A DNA stretch of 64,000 bases from NCBI GenBank assembly GCA_964035545.1, contig OZ037772.1:868001-932000 (forward strand), given 5' to 3'. Shown here piece after piece: positions 688 to 53,900 of this stretch (the stretch's first letter is position 1; each line of letters starts with the position of its first letter). The position numbers and the translations under genes are program-made. The notes below the pieces were generated by a model. It was not told the DNA's origin. It was given only the letters and a program-made list of their open reading frames with translations, and did not search any database. This stretch comes from Bugula neritina. Lineage: Eukaryota; Animalia; Bryozoa.

Positions 688-1252
688 TGTAATGGATTTT
701 CACCCTCTATTAGTTTTTAACTGCGTGAGTCAGTATTACAACTACTGTTGCGTATCGTTTTGAATGCTGTAATTATAGCTAAGTTGCACTAGCTTTCTAA
801 TGCCTTATTATTGTGATTAAGCTTTCAGTATAATGTAATTTTTATTAAATACGCATTTCCAGAGTTATTTTCCCTTTTTGCTATTTCATCGTTTTGCATT
901 AATACTGATACTGGAAATTTGTGTAGCTTTTATGAATGCCTTCAATAGGTTGTTATTATAGCTAAATTCTTGGCCTATTGAATTATTCATTCTCCTTTGT
1001 CTATTTTTCTTTTGTTACTGTCAAGCTTAACTTTCTTTTGTCTGTTGGAACATTCTAGATGTGAATTCTTGTGTATAAAAGCAGGCGAGTTTCCAGTGTA
1101 GCTTCAGACTACTACTGGAGCTCGCTGGTAGTAGGACCACATGAGCTGTATCTGATACAATAAAGGTTATCCTCATTTGTACTCAAATACTTGGCTTATT
1201 CTTTCTAGAGCATGTAGGCACTAGTTGCATTCAGAACCCACAGTTTACTACA
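688..1252 (+). repeat. 5' LTR of element A
   Basis: Starts TGTAATGG, ends CTACA; TATAAAA at 1074-1080, AATAAA at 1159-1164; no difference from the 3' LTR seen by eye. Confidence 0.97.
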
Positions 1253-1253
1253 T

Positions 1254-1271
1254 TGGTGGCAGCGGTGGGAT
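1254..1271 (+). promoter_or_regulatory. Primer-binding site complementary to the 3' end of tRNA-Leu
   Basis: TGGTGGCAGCGGTGGGAT, 1 nt after the LTR; reverse complement of ...ATCCCACCGCTGCCA-CCA, the 3' end of metazoan tRNA-Leu(AAG/TAG). Confidence 0.9.
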
Positions 1272-1302
1272 TTTCGAATAACTAGTTGCCGAGCGGCGCG
1301 CA

Positions 1303-2208
1303 ATGGCCCCAGGGGACTCAGCCCCTGAGGCAGCAACACCACCAGCCCTCACTGTTGAGGCGCTGGTCACAGCCCTCCAGAGATTGCGGGGTCAAGGACA
1401 GGCATCACCTGGTGACAGGTATCGCCTCCAGCCCCCGAATTTCGGAGGAGAAGGAGACGTAGAGCAATTCATCAGGGAGTTCCAGGATGTGGCCACCATC
1501 GCTGAATGGCCAGTACGGGTGCGCATCCTCCAACTCCGGGCCTGTCTGACAGGCCGGGCCAAGAGCTTCGCTCTTGGGCCTGATGAAGAGCACATCATGC
1601 GAGCTCTCAGAGCCCGGTTTGGCCTAACAGCCGAAGAAGCAGCTGATCATTTGCAGATAATGAGGAGGGACCGGAGGACTCCTCTGGAAGATCACGCTAA
1701 CGAGGTAGAGCGCCTGGCTCAGGCTGCTTTCGGTCAAGCCACTGGCGACGCCCGGAAGCGCCTCGTTTATAACGCGTTCTTCCGGAGCGTTAATCACCCG
1801 GACCTGCAGCGATACTGGCTGGCCGCCAAGGTCAACAGTATAGAAGAAGCACTGGAAATGGGGAAGGCTTACTTCCAGGTGGAAGAGCCTAGGCGACCGA
1901 GCTATACAGCCCGCCAAGTGGTCGAGGAGCATGAGGAGACCACCCCACTTCCAACTCCACAGGTAGCAGCAGCTGCAACTAAATCACCCGAGCAGATGCA
2001 GCTCACCATGTTAATGGACATGATGAAAGGCCTGCAGGCTACGGTGACGAAGTTGCAGAGCGAACAGGCGGATAGGCGGGCTCCCCGATCACGGGACAAC
2101 CCTGTCCGCCCATCTCTGCTAACCTGTTGGGGGTGCGGGGCGCAAGGGCACGTGAGGAGGCACTGCCCTAGAGGCCAAGGGCCTTTAAACACCCAAGGCT
2201 CACGGTAA
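1303..2208 (+). CDS. gag: Gag (capsid-like region plus C-terminal CCHC zinc knuckle)
   Basis: 301-aa ORF after the PBS; CWGCGAQGHVRRHC = CX2CX4HX4C. Confidence 0.93.
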   Translation: MAPGDSAPEAATPPALTVEALVTALQRLRGQGQASPGDRYRLQPPNFGGEGDVEQFIREFQDVATIAEWPVRVRILQLRACLTGRAKSFALGPDEEHIMRALRARFGLTAEEAADHLQIMRRDRRTPLEDHANEVERLAQAAFGQATGDARKRLVYNAFFRSVNHPDLQRYWLAAKVNSIEEALEMGKAYFQVEEPRRPSYTARQVVEEHEETTPLPTPQVAAAATKSPEQMQLTMLMDMMKGLQATVTKLQSEQADRRAPRSRDNPVRPSLLTCWGCGAQGHVRRHCPRGQGPLNTQGSR

Positions 2209-2228
2209 CTTCCGCCAACCGTGGGCCT
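2184..2228 (+). promoter_or_regulatory. Programmed -1 ribosomal frameshift signal (slippery heptamer plus stem-loop)
   Basis: T TTA AAC at 2184-2190 in gag phase; 5-nt spacer; 11-bp stem 2196-2206/2218-2228 with one G-U pair; the -1 frame is open from 2184 into pol. Confidence 0.85.
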
Positions 2229-5200
2229 CACGCCAATCCCATCCGGGATAGGACTCGGAGAGGAGAAGAAGAGACCTCCACAGGGTCTGCCGATACCGAG
2301 TGGCAGAGGCCACGGAGATCTCGGAGACCGCAAGGTCTACCCGATCCTCCGGCCGTGCCACTCGAGACCCGGATGCAGCTAGAAGAAGCAGGATGGCAGG
2401 CACCTCGGAGATCTCGGAGATCGCAAGGTCTGCCCGATCCTCCGGCCTGGCCACTCCAGAACCGGTTCGCGGGGTTGCCCGAGGAGGTTGTGGAGGAGGA
2501 TTCAGCTTACTCGCAAGAGTACCCCAAGCTACCCTCCCGACCTCAGAAAACCCCCGTTGTCTCTAAGACGAAGAGGAGGCCCGCTGTGCGGACCCAAGTT
2601 GTGTCTCCCCCAGAGACTGACCGCTCCAGGAGCACCCAGCCGTATGGAAGCAGCTACTTCCTACCCGGAAAGATTTCGGGTAAAGCTGCCACATTCCTAC
2701 TGGATACTGGGTGCACTACCAACCTGCTGAGTAGGCGTCTCTTTGACACTCTTGGTGCACGAGAGCGGGCGAGCCTCGAGCCGTATGAAGGTGCGCATGG
2801 TACGTTGGCGGACGGATCATGCATTCCTTTCTACGGCGTCATTTCACTACCTGGACGCGTCCGTGATCAAGCAATTCACGAGACGTTCATAGTCAGCCAG
2901 CTGAAGGAGGACGCCATCCTGGGAATGCCGTTTCTGGAGAAACACCAGTGTCACATGGATTTCCAGAAGTCAGTGGTGGTGATGGCTGGGAAGGAACTTG
3001 TCTGCGTCGACAAGTTCGGAAGGCCCTTGGTGGGCAGAGTCCAGGTAGTGCGGGACTGCACGGTTCCGGGGAGATCCCAGGCGACTCTTCGCTGCAGAGT
3101 CAACTGCAAGGGGATCGCCGACCTGGGGGTGGTTGAGGGAACGCACGGAGCGATCCGACTAGCAAACAGCCTAAATCGGCTAGATTGTCGGCAGGAGCTC
3201 CTCGTGCAGTGCATCAACCCCTTCACGGAACCTGTCCGATTATCGGCTGGAGCGCTGGTGGGGAAGTACCACTCCATCCAGGAAGCGGATGTGGGTCCAG
3301 CACTGGAGACAGTGGCCGACACCCAGGGGAACCCCCCTCACACCAGACGAGGAGCAGTCCCGGAGCATATGGCTGACCTGTATGATGGAGCGTGTGGAAA
3401 CTGTACAAGTAGTACTGAACGCCAAGTACTGGCTCAACTACTTGCGGAGTACAGTGATGTCTTCAGTCGTGGCGATAGAGACATGGGGCTGACCAAGGTC
3501 ATCTCCCACGAGATACCCCTGGCAGCCGGCACCACTCCCATCAGGCAGCCTACCCGGCGTCTAGGCCCGGAGAAGGAGAAGGAGGTGAGCCGACAGGTAC
3601 AGGATCTTCTCGACCGGGATCTGATTGAGCCTGCCCACGGTGCGTGGAGCTCTCCAGTAGTCCTGGTCAAGAAGAAGGATGGTAGCTGGAGATTCTGCGT
3701 GGACTACCGCAGACTCAACAGCGTTACCATCCAGGATGCCTACCCTCTCCCACGGATAGATGAGTCTCTGGATGCCCTCGCGGGTAGCAAGTACTTCAGT
3801 ACTTTGGATCTGCTTAGCGGGTACTGGCAAGTACCCCTCAGTCCTGATGCCCAGGACAAAGCAGCGTTCATCACCCGCGACGGGCTCTGGAAGTGGAAAG
3901 TACTGCCATTTGGACTAACGTCCGCTCCGGCAACTTTCCAACGGCTCATGGAGCAGGTCCTCAGTGGGTTACACTGGAAGACCCTCCTCATCTATCTGGA
4001 CGACGTCATTGTCATCTCCCCAGACTTCTCGACTCATGTCAGTCGTCTGCGGGAGGTCTTTGACCGTCTCCGGGCAGCTGGACTGAAGCTGAAGCCCTCC
4101 AAGTGTGCACTCCTGCAGCCGGAAGTCACGTACCTGGGCCATGTGGTTGGCCGTGATGGGGTCGCTACCGACCCGGAGAAGGTACAGGCTGTGAAGGAGT
4201 GGACTGTCCCCCGTGACCTCCCTGAGTTGCGCGCGTTCCTGGGCCTAGTAGGGTACTACCGGCAGTACATACCTGGCTTCGCAGGAGTGGCTCAGCCGTT
4301 GAATCGGCTGACCGCAAAGGGGGTCCGGTGGCAGTGGACACAGGAGGAGCAGCAGGCATTCGACCACCTCAAGCAGCGGCTAATGGAGGCGCCAATTCTG
4401 GCGTATCCTGATCCAGCCCAAGAGTACATCCTGGACACCGATGCCAGCGACCACAGCGTGGGAGCTGTCCTGTCTCAAGTCCAGGGTGGAAGTGAGGTGG
4501 TCGTGGCTTACTACAGCAAGACTCTCGCGGCTGCCGAGAAGAACTACTGCACCACTAGGAAGGAACTCCTAGCAGTAGTCAAGGCGGTCAAGCACTTTCG
4601 GCCATATCTGTATGGGAGAACGTTCCGTTTGCGAACAGACCATGCATCACTGATATGGCTGTGTAAACGTGCGGAGCCCTCGAGCCAGGTGGCTCGTTGG
4701 CTAGAGATTCTTGCCGAGTTCTCTTACCGGATAGAGCACCGTGCTGGCCGGAAGCACGGGAACGCCGACGGCATGAGCCGCCGGCCGGTAGAGGACTGTA
4801 AGCAATGCCTGCACATTGAGAAGCGGGACGGGGGACCCGCTCGCCTTGACGTGGAAACAGAGTTAGGGGAGGGCGCCGTCTATCGGTGGGAGCACGGCCA
4901 TCTTCGGACCGAAACCCACTCAGACGACGTCCAGGCGCTTCACGCCAACCCCACTCTGTACCAGAATGTCAAGGAGCTGTGCCGACTCCAGGAGACGCTA
5001 CCCGGCGCGGTAGCGGACATTTTCCGGGCCAAGAAGGAGGGCCGACGACCTAGCGAGGAACAGCAGCGGCAGGGAGACGTTGAGTTCCAACTCCTCTGTC
5101 GTCGCTGGGATGCCCTCAAGGTCAGTCCTGATGGCCTCCTGATGATAACGTTAGCAGCAGACAACCGTCAGCAGGAGAGGGACCGCGTCGTCTGTCCACG

Positions 5201-7283
5201 CGCCCTCCGACGGGAACTGATCTGGGACACCCATAAGCAGGCTCATTCTGGAGTCAGTCGGGTCATCAGGTGTCTGCGGCTGCGTTGGTATTGGCCCGGA
5301 ATGACTCGGGACGTACGACTGCGGGTACGGCAATGCGAGGTCTGCCAAGCTAGCAAGCATGGCCGCCCCACGGAAACCACTGGTCGACGCCGGCTGTACG
5401 CTGGTCGACCGTGGCAAGTAGTGGCGGTAGACCTCGTCGGGCCTATGCCGTTATCCGCCAGAGGGAACACCTGGATACTGGTGCTCACGGACCACTTTAC
5501 CCGGTGGGCGGATGCTCTGGCTATCCCAGACGCAACCGCCCCCACGGTGGCCCGGACCCTGGACCAAAATGTGTTCTGTTACCTCGGTTTGCCCGAGCAG
5601 ATACATACGGACCAGGGCGCCCAGTTCCAGTCCCAGCTCATGGGAGACCTCTGCCGGATATGGGGGGTGAACCAGAGTCGGACCACCCCATATCACCCGC
5701 AAGGGAACGGAGTCGTCGAGCGGAACAACAGGATGTTGGGTGACGCGCTCAGGAGCCTGCTCCTTGGTCGAGGTCAGGAAGAATGGGACGTGGTGCTGCC
5801 GCAGATCATGCGGGCTTACCGCAGCACACCACACTCCGCCACACAGGAGACCCCAAACTTCCTGATGCTAGGCCGAGAGACGCGGGTCCCGGAACACCTG
5901 ACATACCATGTTCCTGCCCCCGAGTCACCGGTACACGAATATGTGGAGGGTCTGATGGACATCATGGGCAAAGCTCATGATGCGCTGCGCACCCAGCAGT
6001 GGCAGACCCGCACAGAGGACTCAGAGGAGCCCCCGTTGTACCAGGTGGGAGACTGGGTCTGGATGGTGAGCTACCGTAGGCGACGCGGACAGTCGGCTAA
6101 GCTTCAGCCCAAGTTCGTCGGTCCCTACTGCGTAGTGGAGGTGCTGCCCAACCACACGTACCGTGTGGAGCGCTCTGGACAGATCTCCGTCCAGAGCGAG
6201 CAGCGCCTCAAACCTTACCATGCCAGCCCAGACGCGGTGGGTCAGGCTCCACCCCTCCTGGAGCCCCACCGTCAGCCCAACCGTCGAGGACGGGCCACCC
6301 AGCCCCGAGAGGTGGAAATTATGGTTCCCAGAGAGTCGGACCAGGAGCAGGCCGCCTTGATAGAGCAGCTGGAGCGACAGCAGAGAGAGGAGCGGGAACA
6401 GGAACAGCGGCAAGCCCTAGGACCACCACCCTCCCTGGGGGAGGACACCCCCACCCCCGTGTTGGGTGAAGGCGGGGACCCCCCTACTAGGGTAGCCCAG
6501 GAGCCACCAACACCACTGGTGCCTGTTCCAATTGAGAGGAGCCAGCGGTCAAGAAGACCCCCCAGGTATCTGGCAGACTATGCTGTAGGGCACCTGGAGT
6601 GGCCCCCTCATGAGGACAACCCACCCAGTACGGACGACCACCCCATCTTGGCTGGAAATTCCCTCCATCACCCCGGAGAATTCCACCAAGAAGAAGATTT
6701 CACACAGCTAGCACGTGAGTTACAGCTCAAGTTGAATTCTAATCCTGATACCCCTAAGTATAATTTAAACACTGTTATTCAGACACTAGCATCAGCTATG
6801 GGAATTACCTCGCCAGATACCCAAACAGAGGAGCGTAAGGATACTGAGGAGGCCAGTCGATCCGACTCCCCTCCCCCACCAGCTCCTGTTTCGGCTCCCC
6901 GCAGCCAGCAGTACGACACCCCCTCTTCCGAGGTGTGTTCCGCCAGCGTTAGTGGCCCTGACCCCGAACCGGTTGAGCTCCAGCTCACAGCTGGGGAGGA
7001 GCAGGGCACTCTATACGGCGACCACCTCGCAGGCAGAGACGAAGAGGACTCTCCAATACTGGCAATGCCTCGGGCCCTGGTCGCCCGCCAGTATTGGATA
7101 TCTGGAGCACCAGGCAGCCAGATAGAAGAACAGACTCAGCCAACCCACCCACAATTGCCCCGTCACGGGCAGAGTATGGCACTTCCTTACCGAGAGTGCA
7201 TCCTGGATAGCGCAATCGAGGCCTGGTCCCGTATCCTCGATCCAAGTACAGAAGAGATAGGAAGCCTGGTGCACTACCTCTAA
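2184..7283 (+). CDS. pol: Pol polyprotein (protease, RT, RNase H, integrase, long C-terminal extension), -1 frame relative to gag
   Basis: LLDTGC (protease), YLDD (RT), TDAS...TDH (RNase H), HHCC + D-D-E + GPY (integrase), RRPPRYLADY end motif; uninterrupted frame. Confidence 0.96.
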   Translation, partial: FKHPRLTVTSANRGPHANPIRDRTRRGEEETSTGSADTEWQRPRRSRRPQGLPDPPAVPLETRMQLEEAGWQAPRRSRRSQGLPDPPAWPLQNRFAGLPEEVVEEDSAYSQEYPKLPSRPQKTPVVSKTKRRPAVRTQVVSPPETDRSRSTQPYGSSYFLPGKISGKAATFLLDTGCTTNLLSRRLFDTLGARERASLEPYEGAHGTLADGSCIPFYGVISLPGRVRDQAIHETFIVSQLKEDAILGMPFLEKHQCHMDFQKSVVVMAGKELVCVDKFGRPLVGRVQVVRDCTVPGRSQATLRCRVNCKGIADLGVVEGTHGAIRLANSLNRLDCRQELLVQCINPFTEPVRLSAGALVGKYHSIQEADVGPALETVADTQGNPPHTRRGAVPEHMADLYDGACGNCTSSTERQVLAQLLAEYSDVFSRGDRDMGLTKVISHEIPLAAGTTPIRQPTRRLGPEKEKEVSRQVQDLLDRDLIEPAHGAWSSPVVLVKKKDGSWRFCVDYRRLNSVTIQDAYPLPRIDESLDALAGSKYFSTLDLLSGYWQVPLSPDAQDKAAFITRDGLWKWKVLPFGLTSAPATFQRLMEQVLSGLHWKTLLIYLDDVIVISPDFSTHVSRLREVFDRLRAAGLKLKPSKCALLQPEVTYLGHVVGRDGVATDPEKVQAVKEWTVPRDLPELRAFLGLVGYYRQYIPGFAGVAQPLNRLTAKGVRWQWTQEEQQAFDHLKQRLMEAPILAYPDPAQEYILDTDASDHSVGAVLSQVQGGSEVVVAYYSKTLAAAEKNYCTTRKELLAVVKAVKHFRPYLYGRTFRLRTDHASLIWLCKRAEPSSQVARWLEILAEFSYRIEHRAGRKHGNADGMSRRPVEDCKQCLHIEKRDGGPARLDVETELGEGAVYRWEHGHLRTETHSDDVQALHANPTLYQNVKELCRLQETLPGAVADIFRAKKEGRRPSEEQQRQGDVEFQLLCRRWDALKVSPDGLLMITLAADNRQQERDRVVCPRALRRELIWDTHKQAHSGVSRVIRCLRLRWYWPGMTRDVRLRVRQCEVCQASKHGRPTETTGRRRLYAGRPWQVVAVDLVGPMPLSARGNTWILVLTDHFTRWADALAIPDATAPTVARTLDQNVFCYLGLPEQIHTDQGAQFQSQLMGDLCRIWGVNQSRTTPYHPQGNGVVERNNRMLGDALRSLLLGRGQEEWDVVLPQIMRAYRSTPHSATQETPNFLMLGRETRVPEHLTYHVPAPESPVHEYVEGLMDIMGKAHDALRTQQWQTRTEDSEEPPLYQVGDWVWMVSYRRRRGQSAKLQPKFVGPYCVVEVLPNHTYRVERSGQISVQSEQRLKPYHASPDAVGQAPPLLEPHRQPNRRGRATQPREVEIMVPRESDQEQAALIEQLERQQREEREQEQRQALGPPPSLGEDTPTPVLGEGGDPPTRVAQEPPTPLVPVPIERSQRSRRPPRYLADYAVGHLEWPPHEDNPPSTDDHPILAGNSLHHPGEFHQEEDFTQLARELQLKLNSNPDTPKYNLNTVIQTLASAMGITSPDTQTEERKDTEEASRSDSPPPPAPVSAPRSQQYDTPSSEVCSASVSGPDPEPVELQLTAGEEQGTLYGDHLAGRDEEDSPILAMPRALVARQYWISGAPGSQIEEQTQPTHPQLPRHGQSMALPYRECILDSAIEAWSRILDPSTEEIGSLVHYL

Positions 7284-7460
7284 TGATAAAACCGGACAAC
7301 CAGGGGCCGCTGGCAATAGCCAACTGAACTGTAAATATTCTCGTGTTACGTGTGATTAATCATAATACTTTCCTGTTAACCGCATATTTTTCTACGTTTG
7401 TGTTTTATTTTTTGTGTGTGGAATCATTGTTTTGCTATCGAAAAGGGGATGCTTTTCGAT

Positions 7461-7470
7461 GGGGGGAGAA
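7461..7470 (+). promoter_or_regulatory. Polypurine tract of element A
   Basis: GGGGGGAGAA directly before the 3' LTR. Confidence 0.9.
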
Positions 7471-8035
7471 TGTAATGGATTTTCACCCTCTATTAGTTTT
7501 TAACTGCGTGAGTCAGTATTACAACTACTGTTGCGTATCGTTTTGAATGCTGTAATTATAGCTAAGTTGCACTAGCTTTCTAATGCCTTATTATTGTGAT
7601 TAAGCTTTCAGTATAATGTAATTTTTATTAAATACGCATTTCCAGAGTTATTTTCCCTTTTTGCTATTTCATCGTTTTGCATTAATACTGATACTGGAAA
7701 TTTGTGTAGCTTTTATGAATGCCTTCAATAGGTTGTTATTATAGCTAAATTCTTGGCCTATTGAATTATTCATTCTCCTTTGTCTATTTTTCTTTTGTTA
7801 CTGTCAAGCTTAACTTTCTTTTGTCTGTTGGAACATTCTAGATGTGAATTCTTGTGTATAAAAGCAGGCGAGTTTCCAGTGTAGCTTCAGACTACTACTG
7901 GAGCTCGCTGGTAGTAGGACCACATGAGCTGTATCTGATACAATAAAGGTTATCCTCATTTGTACTCAAATACTTGGCTTATTCTTTCTAGAGCATGTAG
8001 GCACTAGTTGCATTCAGAACCCACAGTTTACTACA
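7471..8035 (+). repeat. 3' LTR of element A
   Basis: Direct repeat of 688-1252. Confidence 0.97.
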
Positions 8036-24381: not shown

Positions 24382-24480
<99 letters not shown>

Positions 24481-24505
24481 GAGGGAGAGAGATGGAGAGA
24501 GATGG

Positions 24506-24537
<32 letters not shown>

Positions 24538-32954: not shown

Positions 32955-34337
32955 GTTACTCTGTTAGTACAGTTACTCTGTTAGTACAGTTACTCTGTTA
33001 GTATAGTTACTCTGTTAGTACAGTTACTCTGTTAGTACAGTTACTCTGTTAGTACAGTTACTCTGCTAGTACACTTACTCTGTTAGTATAGTTACTCTGC
33101 TAGTACAGTTACTCTGCTAGTATAGTTACTCTGTTAGTACAGTTACTGTGTTAGTACGGTTACTCTGTTAGTATAGTTACTCTGTTAGTACGGTTACTCT
33201 GTTAGTATAGTTACTCTGTTAGTATAGTTTCTCTGTTAGTACAGTTACTCTGCTAGTACAGTTACTCTGTTAGTATAGTTACTCTGTTAGTATAGTTACT
33301 CTGTTAGTACAATTACTCTGTTAGTATAGTTACTCTGTTAGTATAGTTACTCTGTTAGTATAGTTACTCTGTTAGTATAGTTACTCTGTTAGTACAATTA
33401 CTCTGTTAGTATAGTTACTCTGTTAGTATAGTTACTCTGTTAGTACAGTTACTCTGTTAGTACAGTTACTCTGTTAGTACAGTTACTCTGCTAGTACACT
33501 TACTCTGTTAGTATAGTTATTCTGCTAGTACAGTTACTCTGTTAGTATAGTTACTCTGTTAGTATAGTTACTCTGTTAGTACAATTACTCTGTTAGTATA
33601 GTTACTCTGTTAGTATAGTTACTCTGTTAGTATAGTTACTCTGTTAGTATAGTTACTCTGTTAGTACAATTACTCTGTTAGTATAGTTACTCTGTTAGTA
33701 TAGTTACTCTGTTAGTACAGTTACTCTGTTAGTACAGTTACTCTGTTAGTACAGTTACTCTGCTAGTACACTTACTCTGTTAGTATAGTTATTCTGCTAG
33801 TACAGTTACTCTGTTAGTATAGTTACTCTGTTAGTATGGTTACTCTGTTAGTATAGTTACTCTGTTAGTATAGTTACTCTGTTAGTACGGTTACTCTGTT
33901 AGTATAGTTACTCTGTTAGTATAGTTACTCTGTTAGTACAGTTACTCTGCTAGTACAGTTACTCTGTTAGTATAGTTACTCTGTTAGTATAGTTACTCTG
34001 TTAGTACAATTACTCTGTTAGTATAGTTACTCTGTTAGTATAGTTACTCTGTTAGTACAGTTACTCTGTTAGTATAGTTACTCTGTTAGTACAATTACTC
34101 TGTTAGTATAGTTACTCTGTGAGTATAGTTACTCTGTTAGTATAGTTACTCTGTTAGTATAGTTACTCTGTTAGTATAGTTACTCTGTTAGTATAGTTAC
34201 TCTGTTAGTACAGTTACTCTGTTAGTACAGTTACTCTGTTAGTACGGTTACACTGTTAGTATGGTTACTCTGTTAGTACAGTTACTCTGTTAGTATAGTT
34301 ACTCTGTTAGTACAGTTACTCTGTTAGTATAGTTACA
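32955..34337. repeat. 17-bp minisatellite, about 80 copies, starting at a splice donor
   Basis: Unit GTTACTCTGTTAGTAYA. Confidence 0.97.
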
Positions 34338-39275: not shown

Positions 39276-40469
39276 AAATTCGCACATGAACGTGATTGCG
39301 ATAGTTGCATCTTTTTTTCTATTAAGATACAATATAGCTTGCCTTTGAGGCTTTTTAATAACTACTAATGACTTCAACCCAAAAGCCACTTTGATTTCTG
39401 TGCAAGTTTATAGTTTTGAGTTTGCTCTCTGCCATTTTGTAGAATTCCAAATACCATCCAAAGCTCAGACAGTGATTGAGATTGACACCAAGACCCCCAC
39501 CCACTTGCCTATTATTGACATAGCTCCTGGTGACATCAGGACCACCCACAAAGAGTTTGGGGTTCAGCTTGGAGAAGTCTGCTTTTCATAGACTCATGTC
39601 TAACAACAGTTTTATTTGTCTGATTTGTAAGACTGGCCCTGATTAGATAATTAGTGGCCAACCAGAGAATGCTATAGAATGTTTGGTTGGCTGAGACCAG
39701 CAGTCTAATTCTTATATAACCTAATTTTTAAATGAAATATTTGATTACTCCAAATAAATCTATTTGAGACTTCCAAGGCAGTGATGGTGAATTTTGTTAA
39801 TATAAATTTGAAGAAGTTTAGCTATAGGGTTTATGCTGTTTTTTAATTATTCCACCATAACCTGAGATTGTGAGTAGTGATTCTAGAATGAGGTAGGGAG
39901 GGTGTTATGCCCCTCCCTGTGACTTTATATATTTAGAAACTGTTGTTTGTTTAGCAATTCTGTTAGTGCATTTAACAGACCCTAGTTAGACATTCCAGGG
40001 TAGCATTATACAAATAATGTAAGTTTCATAACAAAATCACTCAGCCATACACAAAGGCCTGATGAGGTTAGCTTGCACTAAATGAAACAATATTGTAGTC
40101 GATAAAATGAATAAATAAGTTTATTATTATATCCAAATTTGTATCAGTACCAAATATAAATACTCTTTTTTTTGAAATAGTGTAGTGGATTTCAGCTGTG
40201 TAGCTAGTTAATTATGTTATATCGAAAGGGTCGACTCTATGCCATGTCATTGTGGATGCCGACAGTATCTAGCCTGGCCGACAGTGGCACCACCTTTAGT
40301 AGCCAATCAGGAAGACCCATCAATTAGGACTAGGCTTAGCTACACGCATCTTGGAAGCACGCTAAGCAGCTAGCTGGCAGAGCTACTTGGGACTGACACT
40401 TGAATAGTAGTGTGTTTATGGCTCTATGTTATGTAATCAATTTATTGTCTTGTAGTAATTTTACTTGTA

Positions 40470-41940: not shown

Positions 41941-42220
41941 TGTTGTGCGAAGGACAATGTTTGTGTGGGCTTCTAGTGAGCAATCTGCATTTAGTCACAA
42001 GCAATCCACTGATATTTTCGTGTGTAAGACTTTATTATAAAACTGTAACATATGGCGTAGAAATCTCTATAAGTATCATCACAAGGCTACTTTACATCAC
42101 GGCAAGTATACGCTAACTAACTAAAAAATAAATTGTTCTGCTTGGCTTCATCCAATAATTGCCAATCACTTTCTGATTGGCAGGGGGATACGCATGAGGC
42201 ATAAACCACGCCCCATTACA
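41941..42220 (-). repeat. 3' LTR of element B
   Basis: Preceded on the - strand by PPT GGGGGGGGGCGG. Confidence 0.96.
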
Positions 42221-42555
42221 CCGCCCCCCCCCAGCAGGAAGCATACCTTCCAGATATGCACCAGAAAAAAATAATAATAAAACAATTTATTACATAAAAA
42301 AAAACCCCAAAAAAAAAATAAGATCTGAACATCACGTAAGGTGGATATCTCCAAAAGAGCTTACACACTATTGAGCAATTTATATTGACATAAGAAAAAT
42401 ATAATAATAGAAAAACAAAATAATGTAATCACATGTACGGAGATCGTGCAGCACCGACTAGAGACGGTCAGAGGAGGGAAGGAACAGAGAGAGAGATTGT
42501 CACCACCTGCAGGTGTGGATAGTCAGAGAAGTGGAGGGGGAGGATACAGCTGCCA

Positions 42556-43364
42556 TCAGTCTTGATCGCCCCGTTTGAGGAGGGCCACGGAAGCTTTAAG
42601 GGTCTTCATTTCGGAAGTGGCTGCAGCAACTCTGGGAGTCAACCGTTGAATCTCAGCTTCTAATTCATACATACGGAGCTCGACTTCTTTTATGTTGCGA
42701 GCTGTAGGGGCCTGCCGTTTTGGGGAGGAGGGTCTCCATCGTCGTTTAGAAAAAGGCTGCATAGGAGTGGGGGAAGGGGAACGTCGTTTTTAGGGTATCC
42801 TAACTCGGTGAAGTAGAACTTGAGGTAGGGTGGAGGGACGAGGTATGGTCTGTGCGAGAGGAGAGTGAGATGGCTTGGTAAGTTTCCTATGTCTGGGAGG
42901 TCTTGGACACGGTCCATGAGTGATGATGCGAGGTGAGGGGAATCCGTGTTGGAGCCGTTCAAAGCGGGGGAGATCCTGAATGAAAGGTTTGATCAGATTG
43001 AGGAAGGTGGGGAAGTTGTATTTGTCTACATCGTACAAGTGTCCCACATGGCAGTCCATAGTACGCTGATGTCTGAGAATGTAGTCCCTGTGGTAACTAT
43101 ATTCACCACAGGGACAGAGAGTAGTTAGGAAGTGCTGCGGTACGTGGACGCGCAAACGGCGATGGGTGGAGAAGTGCTGCTGACACAGCCTGCAGGTGGT
43201 GCATCCGTCATGGCCGCGGTGTAGTTGAATCAGCTTTTCCGTCTTTGGTGCGACCCAGCTATGTTGCTGAAGTAACACGTCTGGTAGGGAGGTAGGAGGT
43301 GTCTCACTGTTCCAGGCCAGTTCTAATGGTGGCATATCTCCGTAGTCAGGAGAGCGAGTGGCGT
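42556..43364 (-). CDS. Accessory ORF3 of element B: two zinc fingers (C2H2 and CxC type), basic SP-rich region, C-terminal coiled coil; one internal TAA (42790-42792); probably spliced
   Basis: CRLCQQHFSTHRRLRVHVPQH = C-x2-C-x3-F-x5-L-x2-H-x3-H; CPCGEYSYHRDYILRHQRTMDCH; the same frame continues past the TAA as KRRSPSPTPMQPFSKRR..ELRMYELEAEIQRL. Confidence 0.75.
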
Positions 43365-43735
43365 CTAAGAGAGCAGAATTATTGTTAGATCGAGTTTAAT
43401 CTTTACAGCATAATTCTGATGACAATCGACTGTTACTAGTCTGAGAGTCATGCATCTTTTTATACGGCACTCGAGAGACTGTGTCAGAACGTGTAAACTG
43501 ACTGAGAGACATATTATCAAGCTCCAGATCTAGTAGATCATCCGCCATTACTATGTTCTCGTCGTCATTCACGTGTGACTCTGTCTCCAGTAACTGTGAT
43601 TCAATCAGATCGATTAAATCAGAGTTGACTAAGGTGAGATCTATTTCCATTAGTGGACTGTTAGATCTAAGCAAGCTTACCTGGGAACTCGGTATTTACA
43701 CTCATACTCGACGTTCAAGCTTGGATGCAGATGGA

Positions 43736-46700
43736 TTAGAAAGTACGTCTACTCTTGACCGCGTCGGGGTAGGAAAAGGCTGGGCAGCGTGTTTGTTGTG
43801 CGAGACCGGAAATGTGTGCCCGGAGAGGGGTAATTCCACTCGCTATTCCGTTTTCGCAAGACTTGGTTTTTCCGTGGTGTTCATAACTCCCACACTTTGC
43901 TGCCAGTCTTTCCGTACGGCGCCCAGCTGGACTTTCATACCTGCCGCTTGTAATGCGGTCGCATACGAAGTCTTGAAGATAAGCTGGGGGTCTTCTAGTA
44001 CGTTGTCCCCTGTCAAGAAGGGGAGATGTACTAGTGGTAGACGTCGGGGAAGGTGGTGTAACTGGTGAGGGAGGTGGTGTACTCACCAGTGTGTTGTTAT
44101 TCTCCACTGGTGGTGTTTCCTGCCTCCCGTCAGCTGTTATTCTTTCTTCCCCTCTGTTCTCTCTGGACGGAGCCTCTCCCGTGTGGGGGTTTTGCACTTC
44201 CGGAAGTATACTTATTTCCGGAAGTGGTGGTGGTAGCTCTGGGGTCGGACGGCTTGGCTCTGGACGCAGAGGGTGTGGCCCCGTTGGGGGAGGCGGCCTC
44301 TCTTGCCTTGCCAGGTCTTCTGTCCGTGGCATAACCGACTCATAATTGGGTTTATGCCGCCGCCGCCCGCGCATTGTTGTCTGCCTCCTGGGCTCTAACA
44401 ATTGGGGGCACTCCCGGCCGCACCTGGGCTAGCCCAATAAGGTTTCAAGCGGGCTTCATTCTGGACAGATACGTGTCCAGACCGCTCCAACTTGTAAGTG
44501 TGATTGGGCATCACCTCAACTACCACGTAGGGTCCTACAAACTTAGGCTGTAATTTAGCCGCCTGTCCTCGACGCCTACGGTAGTTGATCATCCAGACCC
44601 AGTCCCCGGTCTGGTAGAGGGGTGGTTCATCAGCGTCTTCCTGTCGCACCTGCTACTGCTTATCTCGCAGTATTTAGTGTGCGACTCTCAGACGCTCTAT
44701 CATTTCCCCAGCGTACTCATGGACAGAGTATTCTGGTTCCGGAATATGATAGGCGAGGTGGTCGGGCACCCGTGTCTCACGACCGAGGGTCAAGAGGTTG
44801 GGGGTCTCGCCAGTGCTGGTATGGGGCGTGCTGCGATAAGCCCTCATAACCTGTGGCAACACGAGATCCCATTCCTCCTGGCCTCGGCCGAGTAATAGAC
44901 TGCGGAGTGCGTCGCCCAGCATCCGGTTGTTGCGTTCGACCACTCCGTTACCTTGAGGGTGGTATGGAGTGGTCCTACTTTGGTTTACACCCCAGAGGCG
45001 GCAGAGGTCGCTCATCAGTTGAGACTGGAATTGCGACCCCTGGTTCGAGTGTAGTTGCTCGGGCAACCCAAAGTAGCAGAATACACGCTGGTCTAGTGTG
45101 CCGGCCACTGTCGGGGCAGACGCGTCTGGAATAGCCAGTGCGTCTGCCCACCTAGTGAAGTGGTCGGTCAGCACTGGAATCCAGCTGTTTCCTCTGGGGG
45201 TGAGAGGCATGGGTCCGACCAAGTTAACAGCCACCACCTGCCAGGGCCTGCCAGCGTAGAGCCTACGCCGTCCCGCCTCCCTAGGGAGACGGCCATGTTT
45301 GCTGGCCTGGCAGACTTCGCACTGCTTGATCCTTAGGCGGACATCACGCTCCATGTTGGGCCAATACCACCGGAGCCTTAGCTTGGTAAGCACCCTCTGA
45401 ATTCCGGCGTGAGCCTGCCGGTGGGTGTCCCATACTAGCTCTCGGCGCATGGCGGCTGGGCAGATCACCCTTTCTCGACCATGGTGTCCCTGGTCGGCGG
45501 CCAAGGTGATGGTCAGTAGACCGTCTGGCCCGATCTGCAGAGAGTCCCAGCGTTGGCAGTACAGCCGTAATTCGGCGCACCCTTGCCGCAGCTGTTCTTC
45601 ACTGGGTCGTCGCCCTTCCCGTTTAGCTCGATATATGTCGGCTACCACCCCAGGGAGGTCCTCCTGGAGTTTCTGCAGCTCTCTGACATTGCGAGCCAAG
45701 ACAGGGTTGGCGCAGAGATGGTTGACAGCCTCCGGTGGATTAGGGTCACTCGGTCGGAGTCGACCTTGATCCCAGTCGTAGCTCACTTCAGGGTGTTCCA
45801 GTGTCGCCAACTCGGTTCTTGGGGGACCCCATCCCTTTTCTCGATGTCTGCATTGCCGTGCTTCTTACCGGGTCGATGTTCGATCCGGTATGAAAACTCG
45901 GCCAGGACTTCGAGCCATCGGGCGACTTGACTGGACAGCTCAGCTCTCTTACACAGCCAGATCAGAGAGGCGTGGTCCATCCGCAAGCGGAACGGCCTAC
46001 CGTAGAGATAAGGCCGGAAGTGTTTCACTGACTTGATTACTGCCAGCAACTCCTTGCGAGTGGTGCAGTAATTGCGCTCTGGAGGTGAGAGTGATTGGCC
46101 GTAATAAGCTACGACTACTTCCCGGCCCTCTTGCACTTGTGACAGCACAGCGCCAACATTCTGGTCACTGGCGTCTGTGTCAAGGATATACTCCAGAGCG
46201 GGGTCTGGGTAGGCCAGAATTTGAGCTTCTAGTAAGCGGCGCTTGAGACTGTCAAATGCCCTCTGTTCGACGGATGTCCACTGCCAGGCCACCCCCTTTG
46301 CGGTGAGCCGATTTAATGGCTGTGCAACTCCTGCAAAGTCTGGTATGTATTGCCTATAATACCCTACCAGCCCCAGGAAAGCCCGGAGTCCGGTCAAATC
46401 CTGGGGGGGTGACCCAGTCGGCCACAGCCCGCACCTTGTCGGGGTCCGTCGCCACGCCATTACGACCGACTACGTGCCTCAGGTACTTCACCTCCGGCTG
46501 CAAGAGAGCGCATTTGGAAGGTTTAAGCTTGAGACCGGCACCTCGGAGTCGTTCGAAGACCTCCCTCAGACGACTGACGTGGGTCGCAAAGTCTGGGGAG
46601 ATTACGATGACGTCGTCGAGGTAGACGAGCAGCGTCTTCCAGTGGAGGCCGCTGAGGACCTGTTCCATGAGCCGCTGGAAGGTGGCAGGGGCAGAGGTTA

Positions 46701-48264
46701 ACCCGAAGGGCAGTACCTTCCACTTCCACAGCCCGTCTCTGGTGATGAACGCCGCTTTCTCTTGGGCGTCGGGACTGAGGGGGACTTGCCAGTAACCGCT
46801 CAGCAAGTCTAAAGTACTGAAGTACTTGCTGCCGGCTAAGGCGTCCAGGGATTCATCGATCCGAGGTAGAGGGTAGGCGTCCTGTATGGTTACGCTGTTA
46901 AGTTTGCGGTAATCCACACAGAACCGCCAACTGCCGTCTTTCTTCCGGACCAGGACAACCGGCGAGCTCCACGCACTATGTGCAGGCTCTATGATGCCGC
47001 AGTCCAGAAGATCCCGGACTTGTCGGCTGACCTCCTTCTCCTTCTCTGGTCCCAGTCTCCGGGTGGGTTGGCGGATAGGCAAAGTCCCGGCAGCTAGCGG
47101 TATCTCGTGACGGACGGCTTTGGTTAAGCCCACATCCCGGTCTCAGCTGCTGAACACGTCCCCATACTGGCGCAGCAACTGGGCCATAACCTGGCGCTCT
47201 TTGTTGCCCGCACAGCCTTCACAGGCTGACTGGTATAGTTCCTGGACGTGTTCCGGGACGTGTTCCGGGACGGTCCCCCGCCGTACAGACGGGCGCTTTT
47301 GGGGACCCGCCGTCGCTTCGCCCAGCGAAGGTCCTATGTCTCCCTCTTGGACCGTGTGGAAACGGCCCAATAGGGATCCAGACGGCAGTGTCACTGACTC
47401 TGAAAAGGGGTTGACGCACTGCACCAAGATCTCCCCCCGGTCAGTCAGCCGATTTAAGCTGCTGGCGAGTTGGATTCTCTGGTGCGTTCCTTCGACAACC
47501 CCTAATCCAGAGAGCTGGCGGTCATTCACTCTGCAGTGAATGGTCGCCCGGGAGCGGCCGGGTACCGTGCAATTACGGACCACCTGCACGCTCCCGACCA
47601 GGGAACGACCGAACTTGTCGACACAAAAGAGCTCCCGGCCTGCCATTAGTGTGGCGGACTTATGGAAGTCCATGTGGCACTGGTGTCGTTTCAAGAACGG
47701 CGTCCCCAGGATAGCATCCTCTTCCAACTGGCTGAGGATAAATGTTTCTTGGATGGCCTGGTCGCGGACGCGACCAGGCAGCTCTACAACACCGTAGAAA
47801 GGGATACACGACCCGTCTGCGAGGGTGCCAGGTTCCCCGGTGTAGGGAGCCAACCCCTTCCTCACCTGGGCAGGGAGGGCATCGAAGAATCGTCGGCTAA
47901 GAAGATTCGTGTTGCAACCGGAGTCCAGCAAGAACGTAACGGCCTTGCCGGCTACCTTCCAAGGCAGGAAGTAGCTTTCCCCATGTGGCTGCAACCTTAT
48001 TTCCCCAGCATGCGAAGCCTCGGTCAAACGGCGTGGTGTCCGTTTGGTGGTAGGCGGGCGCCGCTACTTTGGCGGAGGGGTGTTTAGTTCCCTTCCGATG
48101 TCCCGAGGGACCTCGCTGGCCAGCTCCGTCTCCGGTAGCTGGCTAAAGCGGTTGGTGAGTGGTAGCACGAACGGCTCTTGCCGCCCAATAGGGCGGGTGG
48201 TCCGTCGTGGTTTCTGCCATACCGGGGGTTGTTCTCTCTTCCTGGGTTGGTTGTTGCTCTCACT
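43736..48264 (-). pseudogene. pol: Disrupted pol of element B (PR-RT-RH-IN)
   Basis: LLDSGC, YLDD, TDAS, HHCC and GPY motifs in fragments; stops (about 48063, 47143, 44674, about 44653), frameshifts (about 46400, 45820, 44400), integrase catalytic D to N twice (VAVNL, HSNQG). Confidence 0.93.
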
Positions 48265-48963
48265 TCAAGTAGTCTTTCTCTTTTGTCCTTGGTTAGGGGG
48301 CCCAGCATTGGTAAGAGTCTTTGCCATCTGTTTCAGCCTGATACTCAGCTGGCCCATCTTCCCTCCGAGTGATTGGGCTATCTCCGGTGTGACTTGTGTG
48401 CTTTCTGGTTTCCCTGTATGTAACCGTTCTGCTCGGAGGTAGTCTTCTCCGACTTGCAGGGCACTTTCTAGAGTGGTCACTCCCTTTGCCTGTAGTTGAT
48501 GGCAAAGACCCACATCTTTTAGGGATTGCATAAAGTCAATGAGAGTAAAGTTCCGTCTGTGTGCTTCTGGCAGGTTGCTGTACGCGCTCCGCGCCAGCCT
48601 CTTCACTAAGGCAACGTGGTCGCGGAGCGGAGTGCCTTCCGCCTGGCGTAGCACTTGTAGACGGGCTCTGGCTTCCAGAGCGAGGGTGCCAAAAAGGCTC
48701 CGTAGTGTAGTGAATATTTCCGCCACGCTCCGTCCTTGTCCAAACGGTCTAGCGCGCTCCGTCAATACTTCCCGCAGCTTGATGAGGGCTACTTGTGGCG
48801 GCCATTGAGCGACATTTGCTACATTGTGGAATTCTTCAATGAATTGCTCTACGTCTTCTACACCCGTGAAGGTGGGAGCGGTCAGTTTACTTCTATACAC
48901 CTCCTTCATATGCAAGAAATTGGCTGGCTTACCTCCTGGGTGCTTCGTTGTGTGCTCTGTCAT
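48265..48963 (-). CDS. gag: Gag of element B (no CCHC knuckle)
   Basis: PTFTGVEDVEQFIEEF..WP aligns with element A PNFGGEGDVEQFIREF..WP. Confidence 0.85.
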   Translation of the reverse strand: MTEHTTKHPGGKPANFLHMKEVYRSKLTAPTFTGVEDVEQFIEEFHNVANVAQWPPQVALIKLREVLTERARPFGQGRSVAEIFTTLRSLFGTLALEARARLQVLRQAEGTPLRDHVALVKRLARSAYSNLPEAHRRNFTLIDFMQSLKDVGLCHQLQAKGVTTLESALQVGEDYLRAERLHTGKPESTQVTPEIAQSLGGKMGQLSIRLKQMAKTLTNAGPPNQGQKRKTT

Positions 48964-48996
48964 ATTCTCCGTCTCTTCATTGTCTCAGCTAGAATA

Positions 48997-49014
48997 ATCC
49001 CACCGCTGCCACCA
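48997..49014 (-). promoter_or_regulatory. tRNA-Leu primer-binding site of element B
   Basis: TGGTGGCAGCGGTGGGAT on the - strand, identical to element A. Confidence 0.9.
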
Positions 49015-49015
49015 C

Positions 49016-49295
49016 TGTTGTGCAAAGCACAATGTTTGTGTGGGCTTCTAGTGAGCAATCTGCATTTAGTCACAAGCAATCCACTGATATTTTCGTGTGT
49101 AAGACTTTATTATAAAACTGTAAAATATGGCGTAGAAATCTCTATAAGTATCATCACAATGCTACTTTACATCACGGCAAGTATACGCTAACTAACTAAA
49201 AAATAAATTGTTCTGCTTGGCTTCATCCAATAATTGCCAATCACTCTCTGATTGGCAGGGGGATATGCATGAGGCATAAACCACGCCCCATTACA
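49016..49295 (-). repeat. 5' LTR of element B
   Basis: Begins TGTAATGG on the - strand, as element A does; direct repeat of 41941-42220. Confidence 0.96.
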
Positions 49296-50972
49296 ATAGT
49301 CATTACAGCGGCTGAAGTAGAACAATTTGTCTATAAACTTTATGGAACAGGATATTCAAATATATATGATGTCCGATACACTATATTTTGTTCACCGTCT
49401 AAAATAACTCAATACAGTTTGCCTCAACAAAAGATGAATTAAATTTGCATGTAAAAAGAGCAAATTATCAGGCAGCCATTTGGAGAAAGGTGACAACAGC
49501 CTATATTGATGCACCACCCCCAGAACATCATGGAAGGATTGTTGAGAATCATGGCAGCATAGATATAAAGTTGATGATTCAAGCTTCCGCACCTGAACAT
49601 GTATATTGCAAGGTTTAAACTGCTTCTATAAGACCGGCTGCAACATCTCAAGATGTGGATGTAAGAAGTATCAAATGCAGTGCATGCACTAAGGATTGTC
49701 TGAAAAGAAGTGTTATATTGGGGAAGAAGCTAATGAGAGTGACAACAGTGACAATGATGGCGAGAATACTTTTTCATAATAAAGCACTATTTTTAGACAT
49801 TTGTTATATGTTTTGCTGCAACCAATTTGATTTTAATCATCTCTCATGCTTCTGTTTCTCTAAAATATAATTTGACAGAAATTTGTTGATTTTTGCAGAT
49901 GTTTAACGGCTACTGACAGACTATAGCAAATGATTCACTTGGACTGTGCTCAAAAGATTTCAATATTTATTCATTTCAATATTTATTTTGTGCTATAAAT
50001 ATAGTTTTTTCACACATCAGCTTAACTTTGTTTTTATTTTTGTATAAATAGCTTGGTCATACAATTATTCTGCATGCTTATGCCGCATGCAATATGGCGA
50101 TTCATAACCAACATAAATGTTTATATAAACAACTTGGTTTTAATTTGAGATAGCGTCTTGCAGCCGTTAAATTCAGTATCAGCATAGAATATTAAATAAG
50201 AGGCAATTATTTTTGGTATTTCAGCAAATATTTTATCTTCAAGATAGCTTGGTAAAATTGAATACTATTTTGCACAACCCACATTTCTTTTTATCACCCA
50301 TCCAAGATGTCGATTTGTTTTTTGAAACATAACTTGAGTTTGGGTAAAGATAGAATTCTAGAGTTTGTAGATTCAGAATCAGCACAAAATTCTGATCTAA
50401 AAACAACTTTTTTTGAGTGGCCACCTAGTAAAGTGTAATAAGTCAATTTTCAAACACTTTTTTGGGAGGTTACTTCCAGACTATGAGCCATTTTACTAAC
50501 TCTCTCAAAGTGCTTTACAGGAAATTTTTATGATTTGTAAATGTATGGTCTCACGCTGCCAAATAAATATATGCCAACAGTTTAGTAACACATATCAATG
50601 CTATATTTAAAAATTCAAATTATTACTACTTATAAAATAAAATAAAACAATACCAAACCAATAATCTTCTAACTTTAAATCTGCAAAATAGTTTTATAGG
50701 TGAGCATACAGAAAAAATGAAGTTAAAAAATAAAGTTAAAAATTAAAGTTAAAAAATATGGCCATCAAAAATGCTATCAGTCTATCCTTATCCGTTGATT
50801 TCTTTGCTACTCTTTTTCGTTATAATCATTTTTCATTTTGCAAAGGCTATTTTCCACTTTTTCCACAGTATCTTTAAGAATTTTTATAGTCTACAACCAA
50901 AAGGGAATTATTTTGGCCATGACGTCCAACAAAAGTACACAAAAATAGCAATTAGAAGCGTAGATGCATTAC

Positions 50973-53900
50973 CTGTGACTGTTCAATTACAAGACGCTGG
51001 TTTTCTAGTGCCTCGTGGGAAGTATTTTTTTGCACTTGCTTTAGCTGATCTAGTTGAGCACTCAACTTCTGTTCGAATCTAAATTTCTCATCTTTCATCT
51101 GTTCCATTAACTCCGTGGCAGTTCTGTTACTTGCCAAAGTCTGGAGGCAGTCAAAATGAAATTAAAAAAAGAACTAGCTTATAGTAGACCTGCTCGAAAC
51201 GAACAATGGGAAAATGAAATAACAAGCAATATGCAAATAGAAGGCAGCAACACAACCATTTCAAGTAACCAATCTGTCCTAAACCAGATAGGTAAAATGT
51301 GGTTTTACTACAGGTGGATAGGCTATAAACAGCTGAGCTCTGCCAAACCTTATCCAGCTGCATCTGTAGATCAGTAACTCTCCTCTCACTCTGCACATGC
51401 TCAGTTTCCATCTCACACTTCAAAACCAGAGTGCTTTCTTGAGATTCAGAAAGCAGCTGATTGGCTTTGTCTGCTCGCTGTCTTTCTGCCTCAACCAATG
51501 ATTTCAAACAATTATTTTCACTATTTAACCGCTCAATCTGAAAAAAAATGAAGCGCAGGATAGCTACTGATCATTCAGATAAAACTTGGTAACTAAAGAT
51601 AAATTAGAAAAAAAGTATAGGTACATGAAAATTACACCAGGATAAGCCAAAGCAAAAGTACACAAACAAAAATATGTAGTAAATGAGAAGCGCCAATGTC
51701 AGTTCTTTTCACAAGTAGGCTGGTAGCTATGCAACCTAACAGGAATTAATCAAGTGCAGCAGCATTTAACACGTGTAATGAGTCTGTGTTGGTCGAGTCT
51801 GGATTTTTTCTTTTTGGCTGTTTTTTCAACAGCAACAATTCAACTCTATATAAACCTTAATGTTTGGACAATTTGGTTGTACAGATGCTACACTGAAAAC
51901 CGCAGTCATCCACTGCACACCTAATCCTAACACATACAAGTAGTATATGGATATAATTTACAAATCACCAACTTGTTTGCCAAGAGCGACTAACTCTGCA
52001 TCTTTCTCAACAACTGTCCCATCTAGCTTTACCAACTCAGACTTCAGATATTCCAATTCTTGACTACAAAAACTGATGACAACTATTGCAGAACTGATGA
52101 CCAACTGCTTGGCTACACCAAATAACACAGCTGGCAATACTCACAAGATTGAAACATAAACATATAAACAAACTGCTATTCACAAGACGAAGAGACAACT
52201 TTAAACTAAGCTTTACCTAGTTAGTAAATTTCTTGATATTTACTCACAACAATAAAAAATTACTTGCTTTAGGAGTACTTGACATAAAACCCACCACAAA
52301 ACGTATTTAATACATTTGAAGTAAGCAGGAGACAATTCCTTATTAATTTTTTCAACTGAAACTTTAAGGCTGTAGGTTAGCTTGTCGGCCCCACAAGTGC
52401 CACACAACCACTAAAGTAATTGCATGCACGTCTGCTCTTTAGTTGTTTAGTTTAACTTGATTTCACTTGACTTTGCAGCCGTTAAATAAACCACAGCCGA
52501 TGCATAATAATAAAAAAGCTATATTTTGACTGATACTTGACTGTCTATACTCTATTATATTTCCACCCAAGCAATTTTTATAGTCCAATCAACAGTAATA
52601 ATAGCCAGTGTTATGAGTTAAACTTCTAGTTTTAAACTGAATAGGTTAAAAAATTGGTAAGTGATGTTGATAGTGCAGCTTGGTAGTTTATGGATGATTA
52701 TAGATATTAAATGTTGTTATGTAGTAAATTTGTGTATACTTTCACAAATTATAGAATGAATTTCTTACTAGGTATTTTTCTACTCATATTGAGTGCTTGT
52801 TTTCTAATCTTACTAGCTAACGTACTACTATTCCATTAGCAGCTAGGTGTTTTTGTGAATTTATACATTCACTAATTGCTAGGTATTTAAAGTAATGCAA
52901 CACCGCCAAAGTTGAAGGAGATTATAAATCGTATATTTAATTCACAACATACAGGAGTAGCTAGCTATCTGCTTTAATTATCCTCTCCTTTGTTTACAGC
53001 GTAAGTTGGTAGCGTACTAAAGTAGATACTGTTAAGCCAAGTCTATTAGAGGCGCTACACATTAGGATAACAGGATACTAGCAAGAGAGTTGTTCTTTCC
53101 ATATACAATGGTAGAGCAACTCCTTACAGTCAGATATACATGGGGACACAACCCTTACACAACTCTTACAGTGTTACTATAGTAATGACTGGATTAGCTA
53201 TTGCTTATAGCTAGGGGTAGGGCTGATTATGTAATGCAAAGTAACTGGGATTTTCCCTCAAAGGTTCTCTTGATTCGAGCAAACTATTTCCATTTCGCAT
53301 GGAACTTTCTGGAATTAACTACCTCCAACATATAAAAGGAGGCACACAAACCAGTGGATTCAGTCTACTGCCAGCACTGAAGGAATACACATCAAGTAGC
53401 TACGGACTGAGGACACTAGAAATATAGATATACTTTTATACCTAGATTTTTATTGATAGATAGTTTTCCTCTTAATGTATGGAATTGTCCCCTCGGACAC
53501 TCTTTTTATTTTGATGTGATTTAAATAAAGGATAGTAAGTATAAATATTCTGGTTTACTGTTAATAATTATTCTTGACAAAGAGTCACTGTGTTCTCATC
53601 AGCTAAAAACCCACACCTATAATTTCATGCAGTGAATAATAACATTCCACGCATTTGCTTTTTAATTTAATACTAAAATTAGCCATACGTTCTTACACAA
53701 CTTTAAAATGTAAAAATTATACACAGCCACTTTTTATTCATTAAAACATCAGAATAAACATATTGCTTTTTTAAAATAGAACACTAGTATTATTTTTTAA
53801 GTTTTACTCATTTATACTATAATTTATGACTTGTAGTTTTACTTTTTATATTCATGTAACCAGTATTAGCATCTCAACTTAATTTATTGTTAAGAGAACA

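Follow-up and report, generated by a model that had tools for sequence, protein, structure and literature searches.

Does a Ty3/Gypsy retrotransposon of the bryozoan Bugula neritina carry a zinc-finger gene of its own at the env position, and what might the product of such a gene do? The question was raised by a 64,000-nt stretch of contig OZ037772.1 (assembly GCA_964035545.1, positions 868,001 to 932,000 of the forward strand; hereafter the window), in which a sequence-only reading had noticed a C2H2 finger, a second finger, a basic Ser/Pro-rich stretch and heptads. All of these motifs were found again at the same positions in one minus-strand frame (ORF3, Table 1).

The focal element and its third open reading frame

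The focal element is bounded by LTRs that differ at 6 of 280 positions, and the 4-bp target-site duplication ATAG is present at both ends. Its primer-binding site presumably matches the 3' end of tRNA-Leu. According to Pfam, the domains of pol follow the order protease, RT, RNase H, integrase and Tf2-type SH3, which fits the PR-RT-RH-IN order of Ty3/Gypsy elements. Gag-pol of this copy is decayed, with several stops and frame changes. The last open stretch of pol stops at 43736 and a polypurine tract was found downstream (42232-42221), both as claimed beforehand. For an antisense ORF at 43502-44068 no Pfam family was found.

Table 1. Features of the focal element and of the sister element in the window.
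Feature	Position	Strand	Remarks
Ty3/Gypsy retrotransposon (focal)	41941-49295	-	paired LTRs, TSD, PBS and PPT all present
5' LTR	49016..49295	-	280 nt, TG...CA
Primer-binding site (PBS)	48996..49014	-	19 nt, identical to that of the sister element
gag + pol	43736..48984	-	protease, RT, RNase H, integrase, SH3, proline-rich tail
ORF3	42556..43650	-	364 codons, ATG at 43650, TGA at 42556
Acidic leucine-rich N-terminal 60 residues of ORF3	43471..43650	-	16 D/E vs 2 K/R
Compact two-finger domain of ORF3	42916..43314	-	~120 residues
Finger 1, C2H2	43194-43132	-	C-x2-C-x3-F-x5-L-x2-H-x3-H
Finger 2, CxC..H..C	43116-43051	-	fourth ligand C or H across the family
Basic Ser/Pro-rich stretch	42715..42789	-	putatively NLS-like
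C-terminal heptad helix	42574..42693	-	predicted coiled coil
Polypurine tract (PPT)	42221..42232	-	between ORF3 and 3' LTR
3' LTR	41941..42220	-	280 nt
Sister Gypsy element	688..8035	+	identical 565-nt LTRs, TSD ATAT
Sister gag	1282-2208	+	unbroken
Sister pol	2172-7283	+	unbroken, 1703-aa ORF

ORF3 had been described as two ORFs in a shared frame that are split by one stop. This stop (42792-42790) is indeed there, but the frame is longer, opening with an ATG at 43650 and containing a second stop at 43398-43396. Judged from these two in-frame stops, a full-length ORF3 product would not come from this copy. The order within the two-finger domain is a W-x-T strand with a helix, the C2H2 finger, the CxC-H-(C/H) finger, a strand and two helices. 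Across all six frames of the window (64 kb) a PROSITE-like C2H2 pattern occurred a single time, and of 200 trinucleotide-shuffled versions of the focal element 1 contained it. Both pattern and predicted structure identify finger 1 as a classical C2H2 finger with a beta-beta-alpha fold. ORF3 does not contain a Kruppel-type tandem array, which is characterized by a TGEKP-type linker and at least two canonical fingers; its linker has five residues and its finger 2 is of the CxC type.

As judged by hydropathy and profile searches, ORF3 is not env, because a hydrophobic segment is absent. The highest 19-residue Kyte-Doolittle mean was 0.91 in ORF3 and 0.51-0.96 in 11 intact homologues, with no transmembrane stretch in any of them, and no env Pfam family was found in ORF3 or in the scanned homologues. 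The sequence-only reading had excluded env for want of a transmembrane helix and a signal peptide; of this argument the transmembrane part stood (0.51-0.96 over 12 proteins). The N-terminus of ORF3 is acidic, not hydrophobic.

ORF3 is a conserved gene of its element family

Using the ORF3 protein with X at the stops as query, we obtained 2153 candidates and retained 69 as homologues, JGI assemblies being the source of 67; as the homologues may derive from a few related hosts, this count is not a measure of taxonomic range. None of the 69 had a name or a Pfam domain. Eleven were full-length and intact (355-383 aa, 51-65% identity), so that the 270-280 codons predicted earlier for an intact gene proved too short. 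The start lay within the first 12 residues of ORF3 in 34 of the 69 homologues, and none of those reaching the ORF3 N-terminus extended upstream into pol.

The site of the first stop was read through in 56/69 homologues and that of the second in 35/69. At position 42792 all covering contigs (2 per run) carried another base in three of four sequencing runs, the fourth run being uncovered there. One contig of run X2 spanning 42213-43018 represents a related copy in which the 3' half of ORF3 is continuous with the purine tract and the LTR edge. The view that the stops are damage of this particular copy was thus borne out, since relatives lack them.

Selection was examined at the protein level by scoring mismatches among the 11 intact proteins with BLOSUM62. 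Mismatches were most conservative in the finger domain (mean -0.18) and in the coiled coil (0.01), compared with -0.36 to -0.73 in three linkers. In the acidic head (-0.58) substitutions were no more conservative than in the linkers. By these protein comparisons the finger domain and the coiled coil are under protein-level constraint, and ORF3 is a real, conserved, element-borne third gene with a separate start in its family. The proposal that it is such a gene, and not a host exon captured once, was upheld: ORF3 recurs in other family members (69 homologues, 11 intact), and the stops are absent from relatives.

Pattern searches for further ORF3-like loci gave 175 matches in metagenome contigs and 45 in viral contigs, with 0 confirmed in either set. 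The sole contig matching a degenerate DNA pattern was prokaryotic-looking and was discarded as a chance match.

A family of two-finger domains

The middle fragment of ORF3 was run with HMMER against all of 1.84 billion representatives and matched 145 proteins at E<=0.001, of which 62 reached E<=1e-10. An iterated profile kept 189 of 211 proteins, 159 of them covering 80% or more of the domain; the profile was built from those same proteins and serves as a filter, not as an independent test. Two proteins (P0154 and P0157) fell out of the domain profile and were rejected as generic multi-finger proteins.

Conservation was counted over 65 representatives with less than 50% identity. Seven zinc ligands were retained in 94-98% of them, while the eighth was C in 30, H in 27 and missing in 1, with 7 sequences not fitting the pattern. 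Three helix positions of finger 1 were occupied by R or K in 68-86%. Further conserved positions were a Trp and a Thr upstream, Arg-Asp in finger 2 and Val-Asp after finger 2. Within the same set the head was net acidic in 26/33 and the tail net basic in 35/41. By an ad hoc heptad score devised for this analysis, 26 of 36 tails (25 of them within 45 residues of the end) scored above all 30 shuffles, in comparison to 3 of 23 heads.

For an intact homologue AlphaFold2 gave a confident core at residues ~121-240 and a helix at 317-361, the rest being disordered, and the core domain modelled alone reached a pLDDT of 94.8 and a pTM of 0.85. The ORF3 product is thus predicted to contain a single compact domain that holds both zincs, and a coiled coil at its C-terminal end. 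A homodimer prediction run without an alignment scored 0.03 against a mark of 0.32.

No Pfam family was found for the ORF3 protein, and the 140 proteins scanned gave weak zf-C2H2 matches in 4 true homologues. NCBIfam returned 0 families for 6 proteins. Foldseek searches of the PDB and of a viral fold library yielded nothing at E<=0.001, and VIA-align yielded no Z>=5 among 48,161 chains. Its best row was Kaiso (Z 3.5, rmsd 2.8, 57 residues), which covered the two fingers only and was tied with unrelated rows. Top rows in the ESM Atlas, where no structure search was involved, were unnamed clusters followed by generic C2H2 clusters. Going by these searches and models, the domain is uncatalogued and without a whole-domain structural match, which does not amount to a new fold.

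Among 30 clusters looked up, 3 were named, and all of these were host-annotated proteins of bryozoans. They comprised P0072/P0209, P0153 and P0214 from Watersipora subatra and Bugula neritina, with one or two domain copies each. An additional block at the N-terminus is common to P0153 and P0214, which come from different genera (E 4e-19). Such bryozoan host proteins possibly represent domestication of the domain or its source. A domain tree (70 rows, 139 columns) was made with a quick method and is too poorly resolved to indicate the direction of transfer; Gypsy-linked members fell on both sides of its midpoint.

A finger-less sister element and other Gypsy links

A second Gypsy element in the window is unbroken in gag and pol (Table 1), and its pol is 66-77% identical to that of the focal element. 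Its pol frame continues past integrase into a tail that matched 7 of 7 tested finger-bearing relatives (63% over 123 aa with P0069). The match ends at ~7130 within the first residues of the domain, after which no frame encodes a finger and the coiled coil is absent. From these matches the sister family seems to carry the finger region as a Pol extension, while this copy moved recently without fingers. Since a young and intact element lacks them, the fingers are dispensable in cis. That mobility survived their loss is in keeping with a product working in trans, or with one that the element can do without.

The domain was also found together with a Gypsy protease, 37-40% identical to that of the focal element, in single ORFs of 833-1208 aa. 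These were three proteins of two families (P0181/P0211 and P0191), and RT or integrase was not found in their ORFs. They possibly belong to non-autonomous elements that retained the regulator. Two more relatives (P0169 and P0184) open with a weak integrase-end-like motif. A weak search, which missed known members of 833-1145 aa, found no fused forms of 658-2000 aa among 7989 candidates, and a search with the sister tail returned P0069 alone. Gypsy context was established for a minority of the 65 lineages only.

Possible functions of the ORF3 product

An acidic head, a zinc domain, a basic stretch and a coiled coil form the layout of acidic transcription activators. The acidic head, zinc domain, basic tail and coiled coil of ORF3 resemble this layout, and we infer from composition that the head may act as an activation domain. 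The candidate role that we consider foremost, at a little below an even chance, is that of a nuclear trans-acting switch which would bind the DNA of its own element and turn on its transcription. With the basic tail carrying it into the nucleus and the coiled coil joining two molecules, the product would recognize a site within the LTR or another part of the element by its basic finger helices and would attract host co-activators by its acidic head. Versions fused to Pol or to protease in other families might be freed by the protease of the element. The nearest folds, DNA-binding tandem C2H2 pairs, weakly support such a switch. Action in trans, or an optional role, is also suggested because the sister moved without fingers and because P0181/P0211 and P0191 join protease to the domain without RT or integrase. 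Against an activator it can be held that, in contrast to the fingers of canonical DNA-reading arrays, those of ORF3 have a linker of only five residues and are predicted to form part of a larger packed domain. An invariant valine at the +6 position of finger 1 in the close family likewise counts against canonical DNA reading. An activator is further weakened by an acidic head whose substitutions are no milder than those of the linkers, by fold matches that extend over the two fingers only, and by a Gypsy context established for a minority of the lineages. A comparison of the LTR with the DNA upstream of ORF3 showed no common site above background (best 11/14 vs 11-13 elsewhere), where it should be considered that response elements of the Tas type can be degenerate.

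Known systems offer partial parallels. The foamy-virus protein Tas is described as an acidic activator that resides in the nucleus and binds the promoters of its own virus (PMC517496). ORF3, like Tas/Bel1, is an accessory gene located towards the 3' end of its retroelement and, as proposed here, would share the logic of self-activation. It differs in that Tas/Bel1 belongs to an enveloped retrovirus, has a C-terminal acidic domain and works with an internal promoter (PMC517496); homology is not implied. CERV, encoded by the Ty3/Gypsy element Cer1 of C. elegans, is reported to be nuclear, with a leucine zipper, a candidate NLS and NES and a Cys loop, and to be required for gRNA export (PMC10309623). 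The same source reports that the protein has 517 aa, a C4-type loop, a G-protein-like domain and no obvious homologue outside nematodes, and that its spliced mRNA has exons in common with gag (PMC10309623). Like CERV, as portrayed there, ORF3 would be an extra element-encoded regulator of a Gypsy element, in its case with a putative nuclear role, and has a predicted zipper, NLS/NES-like parts and a putative zinc site. It is set apart from CERV by description, as it lies after pol, has its own start and encodes a C2H2 + C2H(C/H) pair. Nor does it have the H-M-G domain set of CERV; it is a single exon-like ORF, and its model holds the finger domain and terminal helix only. About 50-57 residues superpose on Kaiso/ZBTB33 (PDB 5vmu, 6dfb) at 2.4-2.8 A, finger 1 being canonical C2H2 in this comparison, whereas ORF3 has a short CxC finger 2, C/H as fourth ligand, a 5-residue linker and ~60 extra domain residues.

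Extra ORFs have been described in other Gypsy lineages as well. MDG1 elements have sORF1 and sORF2, the latter a membrane fusogen (PMC11952523), and an AlkB ORF in orchid Gypsy elements is an enzyme (PMC9289625), with fixation of extra domains being called rare in that paper (PMC9289625). These cases and planarian Burro (PMC6431247) resemble the focal family in that a Gypsy lineage keeps a conserved extra ORF, whereas the accessible portions of these sources describe no C2H2 double-finger/coiled-coil protein. Within the literature searched we found no description of a C2H2 double-finger third ORF in Gypsy elements, though Repbase, Dfam or GyDB entries or supplementary element lists may have it already, and the word "zinc" was absent from the main text of PMC8556966, PMC8220671 and PMC13524379.

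The parallel with CERV also leads to a different reading, in which ORF3 would be a CERV- or Rev-like factor that binds unspliced element RNA for nuclear export or stability. ORF3 has the same kinds of parts as CERV, and with it there is a precedent in a Gypsy element (PMC10309623). An NES-like pattern in 26 of 34 heads, counted without a shuffle control, would suit export as well as it suits an activator, but such a pattern is common in any acidic leucine-rich sequence. Strong splice-donor-like sites at 48935, 47868 and 43683 are in keeping with export, and so is an RNA stretch that folds into several hairpins in the tail of pol, shortly before ORF3 (44170-43900, minus strand, z -5.2), although this stretch was chosen after the scan and z<-3 also occurred in 9/121 and 10/121 windows of the two elements. 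As the shared gag exons, the C4-type loop and the G-protein-like domain of CERV are all absent from ORF3 and the nearest folds are DNA-binding finger pairs, we regard a role in RNA export as unlikely, though as the next candidate after the switch. An AG just upstream of the ORF3 start was considered as splice acceptor and rejected as a poor candidate, with many related contigs differing at 43658. Chromodomains are known to tether integration in chromoviruses. The two-finger domain might similarly be an integration-targeting or chromatin-tethering module that is fused to integrase in some families and separate in others, in line with the sister's homologous region in frame with integrase (in the 1703-aa ORF) and the weak integrase-end-like opening of P0169 and P0184. 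ORF3, however, has its own start with no homologue reaching into pol, the protease fusions lack integrase in the same ORF, and the weak searches for long fused forms, which missed known members, gave none or P0069 alone; tethering appears improbable to us.

Two other readings are concerned with the relation of the element to its host. ORF3 might be an anti-silencing factor that shields a CpG-rich element in a CpG-depleted, probably methylated genome. CpG observed/expected was 0.76 and 0.71 in the two elements vs 0.17 in flanking DNA, and Kaiso, a methyl-CpG reader, was row 1 or 2 in all three PDB fold searches. Yet these Kaiso rows scored poorly (E 0.6-1.2; Z 3.5) and on a par with other finger pairs, any young insertion is expected to be CpG-high, and ORF3 has no catalytic domain, so we give such shielding little credence. 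The domain could also be a host transcription-factor domain that was captured by one Gypsy lineage and travels as a passenger without a role in the element cycle. The host-annotated bryozoan proteins, as the sole named homologues among the clusters looked up, are compatible with this view, as are the N-terminal block shared by two of them and the mobility of the finger-less sister. A passenger would, however, have decayed, whereas ORF3 has intact homologues at 51-65% identity with protein-level constraint, and in the poorly resolved tree Gypsy-linked members occur to either side of the midpoint; we consider passenger capture very unlikely.

Implications and genomic surroundings

If the product does act as a switch on its own element, such elements would count as 'complex' retrotransposons that lack an envelope but are regulated through a Tas-like circuit. 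Self-encoded regulators are a defining trait of complex retroviruses, and CERV is the worked-out case that we found among animal LTR retrotransposons. A broader, tentative extension, which we think rather less than likely, is that an old and unnamed double-finger family might be the hallmark of a broad marine-invertebrate Gypsy radiation with its own trans-activator, be it encoded separately, appended to Pol or, in RT-less derivatives, fused to protease, and exchanged with host genomes. The ORF3 protein is a defined and testable object with a conserved, uncatalogued and predictedly well-folded domain in at least 65 lineages that are less than 50% identical, and the finger-less sister element provides a natural control in the same genome. 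The domain may also help to recognize a group of invertebrate elements that is under-annotated, and it is a candidate case of zinc-finger exchange between transposons and hosts.

Some further observations were made in the window. Contigs of related copies pile up at 43368-43459, with a summed depth of ~17,000-33,000 vs 1,300-11,000 over the fingers in four runs, summed depth being a poor measure. This stretch encodes predicted disordered protein and possibly overlaps an element that acts in cis as DNA or RNA. Host DNA at 9000-29000 had a CpG observed/expected ratio of 0.17, and both elements had 0.71-0.76. The last exon of a fibrillar collagen gene (COLFI, E 9e-11), which by itself marks the host as an animal, was found at 39349-39591 on the plus strand, and exons of a host gene for a coiled-coil protein were found at ~50950-52140 on the minus strand. 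Tandem arrays were located at 29957-31916 and 32800-34200, with 13/26-nt and 17-nt periods.
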